Position numbers and translations under genes: made by a program. The notes under the pieces are model-generated. The model worked only from the letters and a program-made list of their open reading frames with translations. It was not told the DNA's origin and made no database searches. This document shows positions 1 to 26,736 of a DNA stretch of 32,000 nucleotides, in pieces (positions within the stretch are counted from its first letter, which is position 1; each line of letters opens with the position of its first letter). Origin of the DNA: Planctomycetales bacterium (GTDB lineage Bacteria; 4484-113; JAFGCY01); the NCBI GenBank assembly GCA_022646745.1, contig CP060262.1, positions 1,260,001-1,292,000 on the forward strand, written 5' to 3'.

Positions 1-84
1 GGCCTATGGTTCGGTGAACAGACCCGGGCCCGCTGGTTGCCTTCCGCAATGGTGGTGGCCGGAGCTGCCATGCTGCTTGCCTGA
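1..84 (+). CDS. 3' end of an upstream gene (partial, hydrophobic C-terminal tail)
   Basis: Frame 1 is open from the window edge to TGA at 82-84 (..GLWFGEQTRARWLPSAMVVAGAAMLLA*). Third positions are mostly G/C. Too short to assign a function. Confidence 0.3.
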   Translation, partial: GLWFGEQTRARWLPSAMVVAGAAMLLA

Positions 85-156
85 AATGGCAGATCTGGCC
101 TAAAATCAGGACAGGGAGTGTCGCATTGCGGCACAAGAGGAAGAACGGAGGCGCAC

Positions 157-1527
157 ATGACTGCACTGCGAGGCAGCCTGATCGGGGCGGCTATGGCCGC
201 GCTGCTGGCAACACCGGCACTGGCCGGCAATGGCATCGAGGACATCGGCACCACCATCCGTGAACTGGGGCGCGGCGGCACCTTCATCGGTGCCGAGGGC
301 GAGGTCGGTTCGATGATGGGCAACCCGGCCGCCCTGGCCTGGCTGCGGGAGTCCGAGTTCTACCTCGACGGCCGGCTCTGGCAGTCGCAGCTGGACTACA
401 GCGGAGCGCTCAACGGCATCGGGCAGAAGGAGAACTACGTAGTTCCCAACATCGGCTATGCCGCTCCGGTGGACTGCCGCCTGAGCTGGGGCCTTGGTGT
501 GTTCACCACCGTCAACTCATCCTTCAGGGTGACGGACTACGACCTGAGCCTGCTTGGTGCCCCGGCCGGGACCACGGACCGCAGCAGCACTAAGGTGCGC
601 TTCGCCGTGATCACCCCTTCCATAGCCTACAAGCTCAGTGACGACACTGCCATCGGCGCTTCGCTGCATTACACCAACGGCAGCGCGGACTTCCAGGGCT
701 ACAACATCCTCGGGGATACCCTGGGCTACAGCCTGAACGGCCCGAGTGGTTCCGGCCATATGCTGCGGCTTGGCCTGTCCCACCGTGCAGATGAGCAGAC
801 CACGCTCGGAGCCTATTGGCGCAGCCGCAGCCACCTCGACATCAGCGGTGGCGACCTCGCCTTCGGTGCGCTGACACCGACGCCGGGCGTTGTCATCCCG
901 GAGACGGGCATCGAGGGCTTCCAGTTCCCCGAGCAGTACGGTGTCGGCATCCGGCATGAGGCTGACGAGGAATGGACCTGGATGGCGGACTACCGCAGGC
1001 TGCTGTGGAGCGGCAGCGGTGAGACGATCAGCTTCGTGCCGTCGCAGGGACCGCCGCTTGGTCTTGCAATGGACTGGAGCGACCAGGATGTGTACGCGCT
1101 CGGCGCGGAGTACAGCCCGGGCTGCGGCGACGACACCTGGCGCTTCGGCCTGAATTACGCGGCCTCCCCGGTGCCGGACAGCACGCTCAGCCCGCTCTAT
1201 CCTGCTATCAGTGAATGGCATTACACGATGGGCTGGGAGGGTGAAGTCGCTGACAACCTGAGCCTGCTGACCGGCGCGGTCTATTCACCGTCCGTCAGCC
1301 GCAGCTCGGCAGTTGGCAATCCGTTCAATGACCTGCTGGGCATGGGCCAGCCGTTCCAGCTGAGCCTTGACAACCTGGAACTCGGCATCGGCCTGAGCTG
1401 GAAGCTGGGCAGCGGCGGTTCGGGCCGCAGCACGGTTGACAACGACTGCGATGGCTGCCATTGCAAGGAATGCTGCGACTGCGAATGCGGCTGCGGGGCG
1501 GAAGGCTACGCCGCACTGTCAGAGTAG
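157..1527 (+). CDS. FadL/OMPP1/TodX-like outer-membrane beta-barrel protein with a C-terminal Cys-rich extension
   Basis: ORF 118..1527. The ATG at 157 lies 5 nt after ACGGAGG (145-151). Signal peptide MTALRGSLIGAAMAALLATPALA. The N-terminal segment ..GRGGTFIGAEGEVGSMMGNPAALAWL resembles the NPA-containing hatch of FadL-family transporters. The body has an amphipathic beta-strand-like pattern and ends ..LGIGLSWKL before a Gly/Ser linker and a Cys cluster. Confidence 0.75.
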   Translation: MTALRGSLIGAAMAALLATPALAGNGIEDIGTTIRELGRGGTFIGAEGEVGSMMGNPAALAWLRESEFYLDGRLWQSQLDYSGALNGIGQKENYVVPNIGYAAPVDCRLSWGLGVFTTVNSSFRVTDYDLSLLGAPAGTTDRSSTKVRFAVITPSIAYKLSDDTAIGASLHYTNGSADFQGYNILGDTLGYSLNGPSGSGHMLRLGLSHRADEQTTLGAYWRSRSHLDISGGDLAFGALTPTPGVVIPETGIEGFQFPEQYGVGIRHEADEEWTWMADYRRLLWSGSGETISFVPSQGPPLGLAMDWSDQDVYALGAEYSPGCGDDTWRFGLNYAASPVPDSTLSPLYPAISEWHYTMGWEGEVADNLSLLTGAVYSPSVSRSSAVGNPFNDLLGMGQPFQLSLDNLELGIGLSWKLGSGGSGRSTVDNDCDGCHCKECCDCECGCGAEGYAALSE

Positions 1528-1646
1528 GGAAGCTGCGATCCCGCGGGGCGGGACTGTCGCACAATGGTCCTCTGACTCCGGCAGTAACTGAATCCGGCCA
1601 CTTATCAGGCAGGTAACATTCATGGCCGCTGCTGCATCCATTCAGC

Positions 1647-2039
1647 ATGGGTGACGCTGCGTGGATGCTGGGCACGACGGTGCTGCTGCAATACTTCATC
1701 TGGCTGGCAATTGAGCCGCGCACCCGCAGTTACGAGGGTTTCGTCTGGTCGATCCTGCACGCAATCCTGATCGGTGTGCTGAGCATGCCGTTGTACGGAT
1801 TCCTGTCATACACGGGGTGCTACTTCGGCCCGCCACCGGCGGCCTGGTGGGTGAATGCCAGCCTGCCGGCGATGTGCTTCAGCCTGTTCCTGGTGGCGAT
1901 GCTGGTCAGCGCATTCTCGCGTACACGCTGGGTCAGGCTGCAGGGGCTGATCCTTGGCCTGGCATGCTGCAGCTGGGCGGTGGTCTGGCACCTGCCCTTC
2001 CTGTACTTGTACCTCTTCGTTGAACCGCGCTTCAGGTGA
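1647..2039 (+). CDS. hypothetical integral membrane protein (about 4 TM segments)
   Basis: 130-aa ORF with strong G/C third-position bias and four hydrophobic stretches (e.g. WSILHAILIGVLSMPLYGFL, ASLPAMCFSLFLVAMLVSAF). No recognisable family. Confidence 0.6.
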   Translation: MGDAAWMLGTTVLLQYFIWLAIEPRTRSYEGFVWSILHAILIGVLSMPLYGFLSYTGCYFGPPPAAWWVNASLPAMCFSLFLVAMLVSAFSRTRWVRLQGLILGLACCSWAVVWHLPFLYLYLFVEPRFR

Positions 2040-2160
2040 GATGCCTGCCACAGCGATTGATGCGCTTGCCAATCAGATGCGAGAAGGCATTGCAGGCCGT
2101 GCGCAGGGGTATGTAGCTCCAAGAGCTACTTGGCCTTGTCGGTCATAGACCGACACACCG

Positions 2161-3516
2161 CTAAACCAGCTTGAAAACCTTGCGCTTGCCAACCTTCAGC
2201 ACGACGCCCGGCTTGTGCTCATACGTTGCCATCTTGTCTGTCACGGCTTCATCGTCAAGCTTGACGGCACCGCTTTCAATCAGGCGCTGGGCTTCCTTCT
2301 TGGACGGCGCGGCATCGAGGTGCACGATCAGGTCGGCGAGCTTTGCATCGGCCTTCATCTCAGCCGGGACTGCCACTTCGGGGATGTCCTCTTCGGCAAA
2401 GCTCTTCTCCTGCACGGTGCGCTGGAAGTGTGCGGCCGCTTCTTCAGCTGCCTCCTCGCCGTTGTACATCGCCGTGATCCGGGTTGCCACCCACTTCTTG
2501 ACTTCCATCGGCTCGCTGTCAATCCGCGCCTTCCACTCATCCTTGAGATCCTTCGGCCCCTCGAGTGCGATGTCGATGTAATGCGCGATCATTTCGTCGG
2601 TGATGCGCATCACCTTGCCGAACATATCCTCCGGCTTCTCCAGCACATCAATCGTATTGCCCCAGCTCTTGGACATCTTGCGTCCGTCGGTGCCCATCAG
2701 GAGCGGGAAGGTCAGCATCACATGCGGACCTTTCACGGCGGTGCCGGTCTGTGGCTGCTCCGCCGCCAGCGGATGTGGCTGGCCTGCGAGGATGTCTCCG
2801 CTGTCAGGGTGGTGCCGTTCGGCGAAGTACTTCTGCAGGATGCGTCCGGCCAGCAGGTTGAAGTGCTGGTCGTAACCGCCGACCTGCACATCGCAGTTCA
2901 GCGCGAAGGCGTCATAGCCCTGCATCAGCGAGTAGAAGCATTCGTGCAGGCGCACGCCGGCGCCGCTGTCGAGCCGGTCACGGAAATCCTGGCGGGCGAT
3001 GATCTGGCTCAGGGGGAACTGTGCGGCGATCTCCGTCGTCTCGGCGAAACTCAGCCTGCCGAGCCATTCACCGTTGAAGCGAATTTCAGTATTATCGGGG
3101 TCCAGCAGGCGGTGCGCCTGGCCGGTGTAGAACTTCGCCATCTCCATCACATCATCATGGGTAAGGCGCTTGCGCTCAGAACTCTGCCCGGTGGGGTCGC
3201 CGATCATCGCCGTGTAGTCACCGATCAGGAAGATGACCTGGTGCCCAAGCGTCTGGAAGCGGCGCAGCTTGACCACCGGCACCATATGGCCGATATGCAG
3301 GCTGGTGCGTGTCGGATCGGCACCGATATATATGCGCAGCGGTTCGCCGGTCTTAGCGCTGCGCTCCAGCTTCTTCTTCATCTCGCCACGCATCTGCGCG
3401 CGGATGCCGGATTCGCCGCTGTCCTGCCCCTGCCTGAGCGAGGCCTCATCTGCGAAGTAGCTGCCTTCGAAGAGGAAGTCCAGCTGCTGTTCGATTGTCA
3501 TGCCTGATGTATCCAT
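2161..3516 (-). CDS. tyrS: tyrosine--tRNA ligase
   Basis: Class I motifs HIGH (SLHIGHMVPV) and KMSKS (GRKMSKSWGN), GGYDQHFNLLAGR, and a C-terminal S4-like domain (KKEAQRLIESGAVKLDDEAV). The ORF track runs to 3756, but its first 80 aa are Arg-rich and overlap the divergent gene. I take the ATG at 3516 (MDTSGMTIEQQ); the ATG at 3501 is an alternative. Confidence 0.93.
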   Translation of the reverse strand: MDTSGMTIEQQLDFLFEGSYFADEASLRQGQDSGESGIRAQMRGEMKKKLERSAKTGEPLRIYIGADPTRTSLHIGHMVPVVKLRRFQTLGHQVIFLIGDYTAMIGDPTGQSSERKRLTHDDVMEMAKFYTGQAHRLLDPDNTEIRFNGEWLGRLSFAETTEIAAQFPLSQIIARQDFRDRLDSGAGVRLHECFYSLMQGYDAFALNCDVQVGGYDQHFNLLAGRILQKYFAERHHPDSGDILAGQPHPLAAEQPQTGTAVKGPHVMLTFPLLMGTDGRKMSKSWGNTIDVLEKPEDMFGKVMRITDEMIAHYIDIALEGPKDLKDEWKARIDSEPMEVKKWVATRITAMYNGEEAAEEAAAHFQRTVQEKSFAEEDIPEVAVPAEMKADAKLADLIVHLDAAPSKKEAQRLIESGAVKLDDEAVTDKMATYEHKPGVVLKVGKRKVFKLV

Positions 3517-3591
3517 AGTTGCCGTCCAGCGGATGCAGCCCGCATCCGTGCCGGATATGATACCGCCGGGTCTGCCCAGCTGCCGCTCCTT

Positions 3592-3597
3592 TATAAT
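3592..3597 (+). promoter_or_regulatory. candidate -10 box (TATAAT) for the 3630 lipoprotein gene
   Basis: Perfect TATAAT in the tyrS/lipoprotein divergent intergenic region, about 32 nt upstream of the ATG at 3630. No clear -35 element. Confidence 0.35.
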
Positions 3598-3629
3598 GGG
3601 TGAGGTTAAAGACCCGGAGTGTGCATCAG

Positions 3630-4220
3630 ATGAGATACCTTTCAGTATTGTGCCTGTTGTTGATTGCGCTTCTGGCCTCCGCCTGCCCCCAGGGAGCTGG
3701 CGACCAGGCTGGTTCGAGCGCTGCCCCTGCCGGTTCCGCATCCTCCGGTGCCGCATCCGTTGATGCCGATGATTCCAGCGCCGGGGATACGGTTTCCACT
3801 GAGAGCGATGCTGAGGCTATCGCCCGGGCGCATGGCACACCGGTAAATGGCAGTGACGATGCCGATGCGGACAAGCCTGTCAATCCCGCCGCCGTTGGCG
3901 AAGAGGCTGAAGCCGCCATGCAGGTGGTGCGCGACATGGCCAAGTACCTTGTCACGGGCGAGCGTGATTCCTTCATCGCCTGCTTCCACCCGGAATCCCC
4001 TGAACTGGAGGAGATGACCGGGATGTTTGACAGCAAGCAGGGCAGCATCACTGCCGTGCAGGTCGTCAACCTGGAGGTCAAGGAAGCAATGAAGGGCTTC
4101 GCAATGGTTGACTACGAATTCAGCATCTCGGAGAGCGGTAAGGAAGCAGAGACCGAGTCCGGCAGCATGGAGCTGCGCCAGGCCGAGGACGGCCATTGGC
4201 AGATCTACGACCTGGACTGA
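3630..4220 (+). CDS. lipoprotein, low-complexity linker plus small globular C-terminal domain (NTF2-like by guess)
   Basis: The ATG at 3630 gives MRYLSVLCLLLIALLASAC (signal peptide plus lipobox-like LASAC). An Ala/Ser/Asp-rich linker follows, then an ordered domain of about 110 aa. GGAG lies about 10 nt upstream. Confidence 0.7.
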   Translation: MRYLSVLCLLLIALLASACPQGAGDQAGSSAAPAGSASSGAASVDADDSSAGDTVSTESDAEAIARAHGTPVNGSDDADADKPVNPAAVGEEAEAAMQVVRDMAKYLVTGERDSFIACFHPESPELEEMTGMFDSKQGSITAVQVVNLEVKEAMKGFAMVDYEFSISESGKEAETESGSMELRQAEDGHWQIYDLD

Positions 4221-4259
4221 GTCCGGTCTGATCCTCAGTACTTTCCACAGGGACCAGTC

Positions 4260-5906
4260 ATGAGGTACTTACTTGCGTTGACAACGGCAATCGCCGTCTG
4301 CTGCTGTGCATCGTGTGCCGGGCGGACGGAGCTGGCTGCGGATTCCCAGCTGCCGCCCAACGCCCTGCAGGATGCCTGGCAGGACCAGCTGCCCCCGCTG
4401 CCCCCGCAGCGCTCCTCGAGTGGTACTTCCGTTTCCGAGCGTGTCGGCAGCAACTACCTCGTGAAGAGCAGCAATGCGATCGAGGATGGCAACCGGCTCG
4501 ACCTGCTGAGCGGGTCGAACAGCATGGCCTGGGCCTACTGGCAGTACACCGGCGGGCCGCGCGCCGTCACCAGCCTCGAGTTCGTGATGGACGTGCCGGC
4601 TGACAATCAATACTTTGTCGCAGTGCCTGACTACCGCAGTGGCCGCTGGCAGTTCCGCGGGCCATTCGACAGCGGCCGGATATTCCGGGCTGACAACTTC
4701 GACTTCTACTCACCTGGCGGGGACTTCTACGCGCTGGCGCTGACCGCCGGTGGCAACAAGGCCAGTGTGGCTGCCGTCAATGTGACCACGGAGGACAACT
4801 GGCAGTGCATCACCCTCCGTCCGGATGTGTCTGTCAACACGCAGCCCCTGGTGGAGATTGTGGATGGCAAACCGGTCGTGGTCTGGTATGACAAGGACAC
4901 GGATGCCTTCCGCATCCTGCGCAGCAGCACGATGTTCGGCGAGGACCCGTCGGACTGGAATGAGCAGATCTGGCTGTTCACTGGCGACAAGTTCGTGCGC
5001 TACACGGATATGGCAATCATCAACGGCAAGCCAGCCGTAACATTCAGTGATGGTGACAGCCACGACCTGAATTACTTCCGCGAGGGCATGGATGACTACA
5101 TCGTGCTCAGCGGCGACCTGAATGCATCGGGCGGCCGCAGCAGCCTGCTGGAAGTGGACGGGCACGCCGCGATCAGCTACCGAGATGGTTCCGGTGGTGA
5201 CAACAGCCAGGGCGCACTGGTATATATGCGCAGCGGCACTCCGAACGGCCTGCAGGGAGAGGACTGGGAAAGCCGCGTCACGGTCTACGGTGCCAACCAG
5301 GGCTTTGACAAACCGGACATGCAGATTGTCAGCGGCCATCCGGCGATCGCCGCATTCGACTACAGCTTCGAGAACGTGATGTACTGCTGGACCACGGACA
5401 CTGACGGTATGACAGCGGAGAACTGGAAGAACCGCACACTCTATACCAGCAATGACAACCCGGAGTTCATCAACCTGCATGTACTGGACCAGTATCCGGC
5501 AATCGCCTTCAAGGATGCCAAGAACGGTGAGGAGCTCTGGTTCCTGCAGGCTGCGGTGGCGGACCCCGGCGATGAGCTCAATGACTGGAACAGTCCCTTC
5601 GTGATTGACAGCACCGGCAACGTTGGCCAGGGCACAAGCCTGTCAAGCATCAACGGCCGGCCCTTCATCTCCTACCTGAAGGACGGAAGTGGCTCGGAAC
5701 TGCGCTATGCAATCTCCAACACGCTCAATGGCATCCAGGGCAGCTGGCAGAAAGGACTCGTCGAGGATGAGAATGTGCAGAGTTCCACGCTCTACACGAA
5801 AGCGCTGAGTATTGAAGGCCGGATGGTCATCTGCTTCCTGGAATACAACGGCAGTGACATCCGGAATATCAACTGGTGCTGGCGCGAGGCCGGCGGACTG
5901 GAGTAG
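4260..5906 (+). CDS. lipoprotein: shared N-terminal module plus seven-repeat beta-propeller-like domain
   Basis: MRYLLALTTAIAVCCCASCAG (signal/lipobox). aa 64-178 form the module shared with the 6040 and 12872 proteins (..MAWAYWQY..FVAVPDYRSGRWQF..YALALTAGG..). Seven repeats of the pattern x-G-x-P-x-I-x-[FY]-x-D-(n)-L-x-Y follow (GKPVVVWYDK, GKPAVTFSDG, GHAAISYRDG, GHPAIAAFDY, QYPAIAFKDA, GRPFISYLKD, GRMVICFLEY). Confidence 0.8.
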   Translation: MRYLLALTTAIAVCCCASCAGRTELAADSQLPPNALQDAWQDQLPPLPPQRSSSGTSVSERVGSNYLVKSSNAIEDGNRLDLLSGSNSMAWAYWQYTGGPRAVTSLEFVMDVPADNQYFVAVPDYRSGRWQFRGPFDSGRIFRADNFDFYSPGGDFYALALTAGGNKASVAAVNVTTEDNWQCITLRPDVSVNTQPLVEIVDGKPVVVWYDKDTDAFRILRSSTMFGEDPSDWNEQIWLFTGDKFVRYTDMAIINGKPAVTFSDGDSHDLNYFREGMDDYIVLSGDLNASGGRSSLLEVDGHAAISYRDGSGGDNSQGALVYMRSGTPNGLQGEDWESRVTVYGANQGFDKPDMQIVSGHPAIAAFDYSFENVMYCWTTDTDGMTAENWKNRTLYTSNDNPEFINLHVLDQYPAIAFKDAKNGEELWFLQAAVADPGDELNDWNSPFVIDSTGNVGQGTSLSSINGRPFISYLKDGSGSELRYAISNTLNGIQGSWQKGLVEDENVQSSTLYTKALSIEGRMVICFLEYNGSDIRNINWCWREAGGLE

Positions 5907-17906: not shown

Positions 17907-18497
17907 ATGAGCAGCAAGCCTGAAGCAGCGGAGGGAATTTCCCGCCGCGACATGATCACCCGCCTGCTGGGGGCGGGCTGCACGGCCTGCCTTGGCGCAC
18001 TGGCCAGCTCCTGCCCGGGCGGCAGCGACTGGGGCAAGCCGGAGAAGCACGCCAGCGGCATGCCTGAGCAGCTGGAGTTCAATGCCGCAGATGTGCCACT
18101 GAACGGGGTGCGCCCGGTGGTGATCGGTGGGGCGATGGCCTTCCTCGTGCATTACGAGATGGACGGCGCTGAGCAGTGGATCGCACTTGAGAACAAGTGC
18201 ACCCACAAGAAGAGCGCGCTCAACTTCGACGAGGCGGAGCATGTGTTCAAATGCCCGCTGCATGACAGCGAGTTCGCGCTGGACGGCAGCGTGCGTGAGC
18301 GTCCTGGTCCGAAGAACTGGCCGGCCAAGCGCGGGCTGTACCACTGGCCGGTGGAGGTCGACGGGGACAAGGTGCGCATCATGGCGGACGCCGGCAGTGA
18401 AGGCGGCGAGTTCGTATCAGCCGAATCTGGCGACGCAGCTGCTGGTGACAGCGCTGGCAACGACGCAGCCGGCGGCGAGCACGACGGCGACGAATAG
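17907..18497 (+). CDS. Tat-exported Rieske [2Fe-2S] domain (lipo)protein
   Basis: ISRRDMITRLLGAGCTACLGALASSC carries a twin-arginine motif and a lipobox-like LASSC. Rieske ligand motifs are C-T-H (NKCTHKKSA) and C-P-L-H (FKCPLHDSEF). Acidic low-complexity tail. The GTG at 17895 is an alternative start. Confidence 0.85.
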   Translation: MSSKPEAAEGISRRDMITRLLGAGCTACLGALASSCPGGSDWGKPEKHASGMPEQLEFNAADVPLNGVRPVVIGGAMAFLVHYEMDGAEQWIALENKCTHKKSALNFDEAEHVFKCPLHDSEFALDGSVRERPGPKNWPAKRGLYHWPVEVDGDKVRIMADAGSEGGEFVSAESGDAAAGDSAGNDAAGGEHDGDE

Positions 18498-18682
18498 ACG
18501 GAGGTGCGGCGCCAGCCGCACAACGGAGGTCAGACGAAAGTCTGACAATCGGGTTTCGGTTGTCGGGTTTCCGGTTTCGGCAAACGGAGGTGCGGCGCCA
18601 GTCGCACAACGGAGGTCCTGTGCCAGCTTGCATGGAGCTCAACCGTCAGGTTGACAACGGAGGTCAAACGAAAGTCTGACAA
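18498..18682 (+). repeat. array of five ACGGAGGT-plus-hairpin modules
   Basis: ACGGAGGT occurs at 18498, 18523, 18584, 18609 and 18657. Each runs into a GU..AC-closed hairpin: GTGCGGC-gcca-GCCGCAC (18504-18521), GTCAGAC-GAAA-GTCTGAC (18529-18546), GTGCGGC-gcca-GTCGCAC (18590-18607) and GTCAAAC-GAAA-GTCTGAC (18663-18680). The array starts 1 nt after the Rieske stop codon. Confidence 0.8.
18550..18580 (+). repeat. heptamer array (CGGGTTT)n
   Basis: CGGGTTT CGGTTGT CGGGTTT CCGGTTT CGG. The inverted partner AAACCCG AAACCCG ATCCCGG lies at 19777..19797. Confidence 0.75.
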
Positions 18683-18688
18683 CAATCC

Positions 18689-18774
18689 AAAGTCACAAAG
18701 TCACCTAGTCAATTAGTCACTGTGTGACATCTCTAACTTGCTCAATTGACTGCCTGACTTCGTGACTCAGTGAC
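18689..18774. repeat. inverted pair of octamer arrays (xxAGTCAC x4 / xxxGTGAC x4)
   Basis: AAAGTCAC AAAGTCAC CTAGTCA ATTAGTCAC (18689-18720) faces CAATTGAC TGCCTGAC TTCGTGAC TCAGTGAC (18743-18774). Confidence 0.75.
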
Positions 18775-18874
18775 TTTCTCCAACCTCCAAGGCACAAGGA
18801 CACCAAGAAGAATGTGTTGTCGCCACCTGTACAATCAAATTTACTCTTCATTTGCTCAGTAGGACACATTGATT

Positions 18875-19567
18875 ATGAGATGGTTGGAAGACGAAGACGA
18901 CGATCCAACATTGTCTGAGAATAGTTTGGCTGCATTTATTGTTTACTTGCATGCAGTCCTTGCAGACTTCAGATTGCAGATTCCGCCCGCAAGTGCGGGG
19001 GAAGAAACATTGCTGTTGTTTGAAGCAAGAGTTGAAGCTTTGGAACATGACTTCATTTTTCAGGCTTTCTACGCAGATGACTTCATTGATCGAATGCTGG
19101 CAGGGATAGTTTTTTTGTTTAGTTCAGATCCTGCTCATGGTAGTGGCAAGGGAGCACCGACTACTCAAACAATTGAGTGGAACCAGCTTGCGCATTTACT
19201 GGACGGAGGAAGATACTGGAACTATGGCGTAAGCAGACGAGGCTGGGATGAATCGCGTGTTGGCATACTGATGGGTGACCCGAAAATGGAGTTGCCATTT
19301 ACAAAGTTTGTATTATTACTTTTTCAAGGTGTGATTGAGGCAAAGAAGTGCAACCCATGGAGCGAAGATCACAAACCATGGCACACGGCAGATCCAAATC
19401 GAGAATGGACAGCCGACAGATTCCTGGCAAGAATGATTACAGCTTTCTCTGAACTGCTTGACGACGGGAGACTCTCTCCAGACTCATCTTTCATAAGTTT
19501 CGATCAACTTACCGAGATCATGCGGGAAATCTTTTGGTGGGATGGTCTTTCGGCAAAGTCGAAGTAA
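18875..19567 (+). CDS. hypothetical protein, visibly low-GC orphan ORF
   Basis: ATG at 18875; the ORF track uses a TTG at 18869. 230 aa. Codon usage is rich in TTG/AGA/TTT/GAT, unlike the neighbours. No recognisable domain. Confidence 0.65.
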   Translation: MRWLEDEDDDPTLSENSLAAFIVYLHAVLADFRLQIPPASAGEETLLLFEARVEALEHDFIFQAFYADDFIDRMLAGIVFLFSSDPAHGSGKGAPTTQTIEWNQLAHLLDGGRYWNYGVSRRGWDESRVGILMGDPKMELPFTKFVLLLFQGVIEAKKCNPWSEDHKPWHTADPNREWTADRFLARMITAFSELLDDGRLSPDSSFISFDQLTEIMREIFWWDGLSAKSK

Positions 19568-19597
19568 CACACTTGGTGACTTGGTGTTTTGGGTCCC

Positions 19598-19620
19598 CGG
19601 CGGAAAGGTACCGCCGCTAC
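19598..19620 (+). repeat. hairpin-plus-GCTAC element, copy A
   Basis: CGGCGG-aaaggta-CCGCCG-CTAC. It shares the 9-mer CGCCGCTAC with copies at 20846, 26683 and 25652 (reverse complement). Confidence 0.75.
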
Positions 19621-19776
19621 GGTCTAATTGTCAGCTTTACAGCTGACCTCCCTTTCCCAAACCCGAACAGGAAAATCTCTGCACCCCTGCGCCTCGCCGT
19701 TGAAAAAACCCAACCCTGACTGCCTCGTAGCCACTCGCGCGCATGCGCACCGTAAATGTTGGAATTGAGTCTGCTG

Positions 19777-19797
19777 AAACCCGAAACCCGATCCCGG
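19777..19797 (+). repeat. heptamer array (AAACCCG)n, inverted partner of 18550..18580
   Basis: AAACCCG AAACCCG ATCCCGG. The 12-mer CCGAAACCCGAT (19781-19792) is the exact reverse complement of ATCGGGTTTCGG (18548-18559). Confidence 0.75.
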
Positions 19798-19832
19798 ATA
19801 TCCTCAGCCAGGCTTACAGCCTGGCCTCCCTC

Positions 19833-20381
19833 CTAGTTCTCGCGGAAGTCGGAGGGGCTGATCTGGCGCAGGAATTCCTTGAAGGTCTCCGGGCTGGCCT
19901 CCAGCTCCATCTGCTCCTCGCTCGCGATGTCCTGCTCGGTGGAATCAGCGGCCTCTTCCTCGGCCTGCTCCGGGGCCAGCTCGACGAACTTGATGTTGCA
20001 CATCAGATCCTCGCTGACGTAGATCTTCACGTTCTTGCGCAGGGCGAGGGCGATCGCGTCCGTCGGGCGGCAGTCCACCTCGAGCGTGCGCCCGTCGCTG
20101 TCGAGGTACAGCTTGGCGTAGTAGGTGCTGCTCTCCAGGCGGTCGATCACCACGCGGGAGACATGCACGCCGAGCTGCCCGAGGATGGTGGACATCAGGT
20201 CATGGGTAAGCGGACGCGGCGGGACCTTGTTGTCAACCGCCAGTTCAATGCTGCTGGCCTCGAGCTCACCGATCCAGATCGGCAGGTACAGCTCCTTCTC
20301 CATGTCCTTCAGAAAGAGCACCGGCGCCTTCTGGCGGTGGTCGTAGCGCAGATCAAAGAAGTCTACCTTTGTGAGTGACAT
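19833..20381 (-). CDS. bifunctional nuclease family protein (DUF151/BFN domain)
   Basis: ..PVLFLKDMEKELYLPIWIGELEASSIELAVDNKVPPRPLTHDLM..YYAKLYLDSDGRTLEVDCRPTDAIALALR.. is the conserved BFN core. Acidic C-terminal tail. Confidence 0.85.
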   Translation of the reverse strand: MSLTKVDFFDLRYDHRQKAPVLFLKDMEKELYLPIWIGELEASSIELAVDNKVPPRPLTHDLMSTILGQLGVHVSRVVIDRLESSTYYAKLYLDSDGRTLEVDCRPTDAIALALRKNVKIYVSEDLMCNIKFVELAPEQAEEEAADSTEQDIASEEQMELEASPETFKEFLRQISPSDFREN

Positions 20382-20395: not shown

Positions 20396-20543
20396 CCACT
20401 TCAGGACCGGCGATAGTCCGCTCGCGCAATATCCAGCCAAGGCTCAGCGCCGGGGGCGGGGCGGGGCCAATAAGATATTACGGATCCAAAACGGGTAACA
20501 TAACTCGGAGGGTGACCTCCGGTACAAACCACGACAGGAGGCA

Positions 20544-20609
20544 ATGAGTATGGAGAATTCTCCGGCGCGTCAGGGACAGAGCGCCTGCGCCTGTCGGTAC
20601 CTGACCTAA
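20544..20609 (+). CDS. candidate 21-codon sORF (MSMENSPARQGQSACACRYLT)
   Basis: AGGAGG (20536-20541) lies 8 nt before the second ATG (20550) and 2 nt before the first (20544). TAA at 20607-20609. The sORF sits inside the structured unit. There is no homology evidence. Confidence 0.3.
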   Translation: MSMENSPARQGQSACACRYLT

Positions 20610-20669
20610 GCCGCCAACTATCCAATTTCCCGTTTTCCTAACCCCCCTTCGCCTCCTACGGAGGCAACG

Positions 20670-20706
20670 GCTGCCGGACCTTCCCGGGTCCGGCAGCTGC
20701 GTTTTT
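20670..20706 (+). terminator. rho-independent terminator
   Basis: Perfect 11-bp GC-rich stem GCTGCCGGACC / GGTCCGGCAGC with a 6-nt loop, followed by tgcgTTTTT (T-run at 20702-20706). Confidence 0.8.
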
Positions 20707-20845: not shown

Positions 20846-20868
20846 CGGCGGCAAGGTGCCGCCGCTAC
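20846..20868 (+). repeat. hairpin-plus-GCTAC element, copy B
   Basis: CGGCGG-caaggtg-CCGCCG-CTAC, immediately followed by a heptamer array. Confidence 0.75.
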
Positions 20869-20910
20869 TGATTACTGACCACTGACCACCGACCACTGCC
20901 CACTGACCAC
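20869..20910 (+). repeat. six in-phase tandem heptamers, consensus TGACCAC
   Basis: TGATTAC TGACCAC TGACCAC CGACCAC TGCCCAC TGACCAC. Confidence 0.85.
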
Positions 20911-20964
20911 TTCCGCCGATCCCACCCTGCACCCAGCAACCAGCACCCTGCTCCCCTCTCCTGT

Positions 20965-25623: not shown

Positions 25624-25651
25624 GGGAACGGGGAATGGGGAACTGGGAACT
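25624..25651 (+). repeat. four tandem heptamers GGGAAC(G/T)
   Basis: GGGAACG GGGAATG GGGAACT GGGAACT, directly abutting hairpin-GCTAC copy D. Confidence 0.8.
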
Positions 25652-25674
25652 GTAGCGGCGACACTCATGTCGCT
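25652..25674 (-). repeat. hairpin-plus-GCTAC element, copy D (reverse orientation)
   Basis: GTAGCGGCGACACTCATGTCGCT matches the reverse complement of copy C (26683..26705) at 22 of 23 positions. Confidence 0.8.
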
Positions 25675-25685
25675 GGGAGTGTTTT

Positions 25686-26682: not shown

Positions 26683-26705
26683 GGCGACATGAGTGTCGCC
26701 GCTAC
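26683..26705 (+). repeat. hairpin-plus-GCTAC element, copy C
   Basis: GGCGAC-atgagt-GTCGCC-GCTAC, followed by the heptamers TGCCCAC TGCCCAC TGACTTC TGATCGC TGACTAC (26706-26740). Confidence 0.8.
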
Positions 26706-26736
26706 TGCCCACTGCCCACTGACTTCTGATCGCTGA

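Follow-up and report, generated by a model that had tools for sequence, protein, structure and literature searches.

Which kind of element is the array of short tagged hairpins that follows the gene for a Rieske [2Fe-2S] protein in the genome of a Planctomycetales bacterium? The array extends from position 18498 to 18682 of a 32,000-nt stretch of contig CP060262.1, which was analysed as a whole and is referred to as the window, and each hairpin is preceded by a tag resembling a Shine-Dalgarno (SD) sequence. An initial annotation had left four interpretations side by side: a protein-sponge RNA of the CsrB/RsmZ type, a ribosome or anti-SD decoy, a stability element of the 3' untranslated region (3' UTR) and a DNA element similar to repetitive extragenic palindromic (REP) sequences and bacterial interspersed mosaic elements (BIMEs). 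The stability element and the REP/BIME-like element are best supported, and this jointly, whereas the sponge is not supported. With moderate confidence we regard the array as a lineage-specific, GGAG-tagged REP/BIME-like repeat that would serve as a hairpin module at the 3' end of the transcript.

The array downstream of the Rieske gene

The Rieske gene (17907-18497, plus strand; Pfam PF00355) ends with a TAG stop codon at 18495-18497 (plus strand), and the array opens at the next base, exactly as annotated initially. The motif ACGGAGGT is present five times in the window, always on the plus strand (18498, 18523, 18584, 18609 and 18657) and nowhere else in it. The chance expectation is 0.61 copies, and five copies were reached in none of 100 shuffles. 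The copies start 25, 61, 48 and 25 nt apart, and repeat finding gave a period of 25 nt. A repeat unit thus comprises about 25 nt, namely a single-stranded tag (A)ACGGAG, a 7-bp stem closed by G-C, a tetraloop (usually GNRA) and AA. The array consists of six such units, three of them strong, one with a 6-bp stem, one whose stem is impaired by an A.C mismatch, and a decayed one, plus an insert of 36 nt.

All units are read on the plus strand. Unit 1 (18498-18522) is composed of ACGGAG, GUGCGGC-GCCA-GCCGCAC and A (23.6 bits, -14.9 kcal/mol), unit 2 (18523-18547) of ACGGAG, GUCAGAC-GAAA-GUCUGAC with a GNRA loop and A (38.7 bits, -11.5 kcal/mol). They are followed by the insert (18548-18583, plus strand), which contains heptamer repeats of the CGGGTTT type. 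Unit 3 (18584-18608) is a copy of unit 1 (GUGCGGC-GCCA-GUCGCAC) in which a C-to-U change results in a G.U pair (36.2 bits, -12.2 kcal/mol). Unit 4 (18609-18631) retains the full tag ACGGAGGU but no longer forms a hairpin (-1.8 kcal/mol; 84% to unit 1). Unit 5 (18632-18656) carries the variant tag AUGGAGC and the 6-bp hairpin UCAACC-GUCA-GGUUGA (-7.8 kcal/mol), and is kept in a sister metagenome-assembled genome (MAG; assembly JAGRNR01, 'UBP7 HKST-UBA01', locus L028). Unit 6 (18657-18682) reads ACGGAG, GUCAAAC-GAAA-GUCUGAC and AA with an A.C mismatch (29.3 bits, -5.1 kcal/mol); its stem GUCAAAC is GUCAGAC in the sister genome.

The initial description is therefore correct for the five linkers between stable hairpins and for the two GTGCGGC/GCCGCAC stems, the second with a C-to-T change keeping a G-U pair. 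Of the two reported copies of GTCAGAC-GAAA-GTCTGAC only the first stands, the second being GTCAAAC-GAAA-GTCTGAC. The supposed longer variant turned out to be two units, the decayed unit 4 and unit 5. Of the two proposed tandem super-units, the first (18498-18583) is simply the part that is absent from the sister genome.

Folding of the whole stretch 18498-18682 compared with shuffled sequences yielded z = -3.9 for the plus strand and -1.6 for the minus strand. The units have no U-tract, the next bases being AA(C/U)(G/A)G, and consensus scans revealed no promoter-like or terminator-like sites of the array's own. A start codon at usable distance 3' of the tags was not found, which bears out the initial annotation in this point, too.

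Two other explanations of the array were rejected. It is not a translated sequence, since its period is not a multiple of three and the read-through extension of the Rieske gene, 15 codons in length, is not conserved among the orthologues. It is not the leader or ribosome-binding site (RBS) of the downstream open reading frame (ORF) either, because this ORF is a recent insertion of low GC content, absent from L028 and from another related locus (L051), and the ancestral next gene is convergent.

A dispersed family of tagged hairpins

A covariance model (R1) was built from an alignment (A1) of 28 distinct units and run with filters off. R1 gave 33 matches of at least 18 bits in about 250 kb from the source genome and related genomes, compared with a top match of 14.5 bits in 212 kb of unrelated control loci. 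The matches sit at about 16 sites in several MAGs, all of them intergenic. The genes upstream of the units are diverse and encode, besides the Rieske protein, a BFN-domain protein, a MoxR-like ATPase, proteins of 577 and 301 amino acids, an ornithine transcarbamylase (OTCase), a tyrosyl-tRNA synthetase (TyrRS), a TetR protein and an HslU-like ATPase. In the unclassified MAG AC1.30 (L011) a single 8-kb locus contains one array after the MoxR-like ATPase gene and one after the gene for the 577-aa protein, and L024 contains an array after the HslU-like ATPase gene. A scan for GAG followed by a hairpin detected units after the OTCase, 301-aa, BFN-domain, TetR and TyrRS genes of L054 and L055. Further arrays, a search for which had been proposed in the initial annotation, exist as the same unit family after many genes of related uncultured genomes. 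In the source genome itself the family is sparse.

A scan of a genome collection for two adjacent linkers identified three family members (L011, L024 and L028) among 40 loci; the other loci were rejected as coding Asn-Gly-Gly repeats or unrelated tandem repeats. In a metagenome scan, one of 76 loci (L080) belonged to the family, and the other 25-nt tandem repeats with AACGGAGG were dismissed as a selection artefact of the periodic search pattern. Intergenic tandem repeats of 24-25 nt with AACGGAGG were also seen at other loci (Rubripirellula L032, L101, L115, L096), the search pattern having selected for such repeats.

More distant relatives, found via MutS (56-84% identical; L133-L138), are essentially unit-free apart from one antisense copy in L133 and one GTAG-type match in L134, so that the family is confined to a narrow clade. 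The abundance of the family varies strongly from genome to genome. No units were detected in the 10 kb further upstream on the source contig (L139), and the 42 kb examined of the source genome contains units solely in the one intergenic region between the Rieske and BFN-domain genes. The locus L133, with a MutS 84% identical, carries Mu-like phage genes (portal, terminase, repressor; 1-4555) which adjoin a thioredoxin/OTCase cluster.

Orientation and distance to the stop codon

Judged against the gene calls, 32 of the 33 R1 matches follow a co-directional gene on its 3' side. As the GTAG-type unit in L134 is among these 32, there remain 15 sense GGAG arrays and one antisense GGAG unit. If only co-directional gene pairs are considered, where orientation is informative, 8-9 sense arrays face one antisense case. 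All arrays are organised head-to-tail on one strand. As to the REP/BIME-like nature suggested initially, the dispersed tagged palindromic repeat holds. A purely DNA-level REP, for which the initial annotation would have expected copies scattered in both orientations, does not: nearly all copies are read in the same direction as the gene that precedes them.

The first unit begins at -2 to 0 nt from the stop codon in seven of the 15 arrays and at 9-11 nt in three more. Thereby the first stem starts 5-7 nt past the stop, as in TAG-ACGGAG, TAA-CGGAG, TGA-ACGGAG, TGA-CGGAG, TGA-AUGGAG, TGA-GCGGAG and TGA-GAGAG.

Where two genes converge, the units of either gene lie on the strand of that gene. This applies to the window, where minus-strand units occupy the 3' region of the convergent BFN-domain gene (19833-20381, minus strand). 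One of them (19805-19832, minus strand) directly follows the TAG stop codon of this gene (19833-19835) and consists of GAGGGAG and GCCAGGCU-GUA-AGCCUGGC (19.6 bits, -15.9 kcal/mol). A solo unit further down (19628-19654, minus strand) with AAGGGAG, GUCAGCU-GUAA-AGCUGAC and AA (37.5 bits, -11.6 kcal/mol) is conserved in L051. It is followed on the same strand by a GTAG-tagged hairpin (19596-19622). Such strand-matched units in convergent pairs are not explicable by a replication-strand bias of insertion.

Indications for selection in the transcript

For an unbiased view we listed all hairpins with a 7-bp stem and a 4-nt loop containing at most one non-Watson-Crick pair. On the tagged strand, G.U or U.G pairs were present in about nine distinct unit types and A.C in one only (unit 6 of the window). 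Neutral decay at DNA level would produce both in equal numbers (P about 0.01 for at most one in ten). Furthermore, 20 of the 28 distinct units have GNRA loops, compared with an expectation of 1 in 32, and the last loop base is always A. The excess of G.U over A.C and the dominance of GNRA on the tagged strand argue for selection on the transcript and not on duplex or either-strand DNA.

The trinucleotide GAG stands immediately 5' of the stem in about 40 of 45 family-type hairpins but in only about 1.8% of other hairpins, which indicates that the tag is truly linked to the hairpin. Double-sided changes among the unit types occur at all seven stem positions. The informative part of this covariation is the diversity of stems beneath a constant linker.

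Turnover of the arrays between close relatives

An identical Rieske protein is encoded on contig JAGRNS010000015 (MAG GCA_020440665.1) and on several metagenome contigs, all with the same five motifs. The orthologous array of the sister assembly (L028) has only four units, the 86 nt corresponding to 18498-18583 being missing. In L051 (Rieske protein 87% identical) the array begins at the stop codon, too, but is built of other unit types (GCCCGGA-GCAA-, GUCAGCU-GUAA-, GUCAACC-GUGA- and GUCAGAA-UUCA-). At about 60% identity (L054, L055) no units follow the Rieske gene, and heptamer repeats and GTAG-tagged hairpins are found there instead. The unit content turns over rapidly between close relatives. 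As orthologous arrays differ or are replaced, the array evolves fast and is no conserved companion of the Rieske gene.

Comparison with REP and BIME elements

REPs are predominantly located downstream of ORFs, where the GTAG tag often supplies the stop codon, are grouped head-head, tail-tail or head-tail, and many of them are thought to act as RNA (PMC3733652). Several REPs of Pseudomonas and Xanthomonas read GT[A/G]GGAG before the stem (PMC2817692). According to PMC12306157, citing Newbury 1987 and Liang 2015, REP hairpins stabilise the upstream mRNA, attenuate transcription and stall ribosomes when situated within 15 nt of the stop codon.

The units described here have much in common with these elements (Di Nocera et al. 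2013, Nunvar et al. 2010). They are short palindromes in which an unpaired 5' tag of 4 nt precedes a stem of about 7 bp with a small loop; with 25 nt, a 7-bp stem, a 4-nt loop and -11 to -15 kcal/mol they fall within the 20-40 nt of REP/BIME palindromes. They are intergenic, mostly downstream of ORFs and often touching the stop codon, are clustered in arrays, form several sequence subtypes per genome, and their copy number differs widely between genomes. Unlike in REPs and BIMEs, however, the tag is GGAG in the form (A)ACGGAG and not GTAG or CGTC, with only occasional G/T alternation at the second tag base. The array is strictly head-to-tail with a 25-nt period, lacking the inverted pairs of REPINs (REP doublets forming hairpins) and the alternating orientation of BIMEs; almost all units are sense to the upstream gene, and neighbouring units differ in the stem but have the same linker. 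In addition, a REP-associated tyrosine transposase (RAYT) is not known to be linked to the units.

The near-exclusive sense orientation, together with the analogy to enterobacterial REP/BIME elements, leads us to think that the array works in the transcript. In a small group of uncultured bacteria, units of the family are dispersed to the 3' ends of many genes and are retained almost solely where the transcript of the preceding gene carries tag and hairpin. By its stack of stable hairpins, the array would block 3'-to-5' exonucleases and attenuate read-through. The terminating ribosome would have to melt the stop-proximal first hairpin, by which termination or the expression of the upstream gene might be tuned. 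A comparable situation is found in the stop-proximal REPs of E. coli, as summarised in PMC12306157 (Liang, Rudd & Deutscher 2015): a stable hairpin within 15 nt of the stop codon has to be unwound by the terminating ribosome. Since the first stem lies 5-7 nt from the stop in our case, the array is probably also a modulator of termination. In contrast to the E. coli elements as portrayed there, an SD-like tag precedes the hairpin and further units follow, and the effect on translation is a predicted one.

Several points weigh against this reading. The scarcity of the family in the source genome, with a single occupied intergenic region in 42 kb, argues against an indispensable general function and would fit a selfish repeat. 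One clear antisense unit exists (L133, 8114-8140). The statistics on orientation and G.U pairs rest on about 15 arrays, some of which are mutually orthologous, and as the units used for the covariation were selected for pairing, the figure of 100% paired positions is circular. Without a U-tract the units are not canonical intrinsic terminators, although such terminators do occur elsewhere in these genomes, e.g. near the array at 20668-20705. The strict head-to-tail order and the GGAG tag set the family apart from classical REP/BIME elements. Finally, the stabilising, 3'-end and transcriptional effects of the array are predictions made from the sequence.

Other known elements resemble the array in part. 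The hairpins of intrinsic (Rho-independent) terminators are followed by a U-tract, which is missing here, and no terminator-like site appeared in the scan of the array. Mycobacterial interspersed repetitive units (MIRUs) are head-to-tail intergenic repeats, too, are oriented with transcription and abut the upstream stop codon, but they are 46-100 bp in length, are not hairpin units and carry short ORFs coupling translation. The period of 25 nt, by contrast, is not a multiple of three, and no ORF is involved.

Could the array be a selfish DNA repeat?

Non-autonomous REP-type elements might be spread by a RAYT-like (IS200/IS605 Y1) enzyme recognising the GGAG tag and the hairpin in single-stranded DNA, and might be functionless in RNA; sense bias and stop adjacency would then result from target choice or from purging of harmful insertions. 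We consider this unlikely, although a number of observations are in line with it. The design of 4-nt tag, 7-bp stem and tetraloop is that of a tagged REP, and GGAG is one base off GTAG. G and T alternate at this tag position at the end of an array in L011 (AACGTAG) and in arrays from the Dysgonamonadaceae, GTAG-tagged hairpins stand head-to-tail with GGAG units on the same strand (window 19596-19654, minus strand; L080), and relatives hold classical inverted GTAG pairs. The uneven abundance among genomes, the fast turnover of units and the limited set of unit types common to loci and genomes would be expected, too. The strand-specific excess of G.U pairs and the GNRA loops, however, remain unexplained by such an element. 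Moreover, on the two strands of one intergenic region the units each correspond to the gene of their strand, which a replication-strand bias of insertion would not produce. No Y1 transposase (domain Y1_Tnp) was present among the genes called in the fetched loci, a single-copy gene being easily missed in such a sample.

A second repeat family was observed at 20857-20911 (minus strand), 25624-25680 (plus strand), 26683-26721 (minus strand) and 19596-19622 (minus strand). It comprises tandem repeats of heptamers (ACTGACC, GGGAACG, ACTGCCC) abutting a GTAG-tagged hairpin GTAGCGGCG[A/G]CA...TG[T/C]CGCCG. These elements look like classical GTAG REPs joined to heptamers similar to short tandemly repeated repetitive (STRR) sequences. 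They occur in both orientations relative to genes, and in L134 (12633-12720) with inverted REPIN-like pairs.

The Dysgonamonadaceae MAG Ct408_bin100 (L029, L047, L050), which belongs to an unrelated phylum, contains 23-nt head-to-tail arrays of the form ATTACAACG[G/T]AGGTTGCAATGAG, i.e. the same design of tag plus hairpin with GGAG/GTAG alternation.

Could the tags mimic Shine-Dalgarno sequences?

The single-stranded GGAGG tags behind the stop codon might pair with the anti-SD sequence of the 16S rRNA and capture post-termination 30S/70S ribosomes or free 30S subunits. As a consequence, the 3' end would be shielded, downstream scanning or re-initiation prevented, or a local reservoir of ribosomes formed. 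Such a role seems improbable to us, though not without some appeal. The conserved core GGAGG(U) equals real RBSs of this lineage: ACGGAGG at 145-151 was correctly named the RBS of the outer-membrane gene (FadL-like), which it precedes by 5 nt (ACGGAGG-N5-ATG), the heptamer recurs at 20658, and GGAG-type SDs are present before many genes. No usable start codon follows the tags, and in many arrays the first tag lies 0-3 nt past the stop. Many genes look leaderless, so that SD-led binding of 30S subunits may be a limited, regulated resource. On the other hand, the stem includes the last G and the next U/C of GGAGG(U/C) and thereby competes with pairing to the anti-SD. The tags vary (AUGGAG, UUGGAG, GCGGAG, GAGAG, ACAGAG) with only about 4 nt constant, and, GGAG being one mutation away from the REP tag GTAG, its likeness to an SD sequence may be coincidental.

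STAB-SD, too, is an SD-like sequence that lies in an untranslated region and has no start codon; it protects Bacillus mRNAs from the 5' end by binding of 30S subunits. That is a single 5'-UTR site acting against a 5' exonuclease, in contrast to the multiple sites interleaved with hairpins in the 3' UTR found here. A literature search on SD-like repeats in 3' UTRs gave no result, and we know of no precedent for 3'-UTR SD arrays. It is accordingly with considerable doubt that we mention the idea of arrays of SD tags and GNRA hairpins 0-3 nt past stop codons, which in a lineage rich in leaderless mRNAs might capture 30S subunits, either free or left over from termination, on the 3' UTR. If true, SD-tag capture would, throughout the genome, couple translation termination to the protection of mRNA or to the recycling or buffering of ribosomes in a way not described before.

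Regarding the start sites, many genes of the window (e.g. in the regions of 17823, 20381 and 27828) and of L054 and L055 have a TATAAT-like box 7-10 nt before ATG or GTG and no SD sequence, whereas others have GGAG-type SDs. A TATAAT-like box this close to the start in combination with a missing SD sequence suggests widespread leaderless mRNAs.

Could the array be a protein sponge?

A sponge or platform of the CsrB/RsmZ type, in which A(N)GGA motifs between hairpins titrate a CsrA-like or another GGA/GGAG-binding protein, is very improbable: five to six ACGGA motifs do alternate with stem-loops in single-stranded linkers, and the linker ACAACGGAGGU is near the CsrA/RsmE consensus (A/U-CA-NGGA-NG-U/A), but the GGA motifs lie in 7-nt linkers and never in the loops (GNRA, UUCA or GCCA), Rfam gave no relevant match in the gathering scan of the whole window and in a scan of 18300-19900 at E <= 10, the array opens at a stop codon instead of forming a separate gene, and it is shortened or replaced in close relatives. 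Above all, the same units occur singly and in arrays after many unrelated genes, which speaks against a one-off sponge RNA gene at a single locus.

Other features around the array

Both convergent genes have sense-oriented CGGGTTT heptamers in their 3' regions, at 18549-18580 (plus strand) and at 19776-19791 (sense on the minus strand); the L051 orthologue has the heptamers, too. Between the array and the 3' region of the BFN-domain gene lies an ORF of about 227 aa and low GC content (18884-19567, plus strand; 43-47%), for which neither Pfam nor PADLOC gave a match. It is missing from the sister MAG L028 and from L051, which points to an insertion of about 0.8 kb at this place. The insertion is placed right after a long imperfect hairpin (18689-18777; -32.4 kcal/mol, z = -5.6) made up of GTCAC-containing 8-mers, with (A)AAGTCAC repeats facing GTGACT repeats. 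The hairpin, which is conserved in both L028 and L051, lies halfway between the convergent genes, where it might serve as a bidirectional terminator or bind a protein.

At 19676-19712 (plus strand) the motif CTCTGCACCCCTGCGCCTCGCCGTTGAAAAAACCC is present, which recurs with variation in the same intergenic region of L051, L054 and L055; a strict pattern search for it matched only contigs of the same species. Finally, the stretch 20540-20705 (plus strand) contains an ORF of 21 codons preceded by CAGGAGG, and subsequently ACGGAGG (20658) and a canonical G+C-rich hairpin of 14 bp with a T-run (20668-20705). It is situated in a divergent promoter region and may represent a gene for a small protein or a small RNA (sRNA); Rfam had no match for this region.

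Significance of the repeat family

On present evidence the array is more orderly than classical REPs, but it is not a new class of regulator. Arrays of this kind should not be annotated as sRNA or sponge genes. The family extends the tagged palindromic (REP-like) repeats to an uncultured candidate phylum, and this in an unusual form: the tag is a Shine-Dalgarno-like GGAG, nearly all copies are sense, and the arrays are strictly head-to-tail and abut the stop codon precisely. The strand-specific G.U pairs and the GNRA loops are rare and clean sequence-level evidence of selection on such repeats in the transcript. If the tag does engage ribosomes, the arrays would represent a new kind of interaction between 3' UTR and ribosome.

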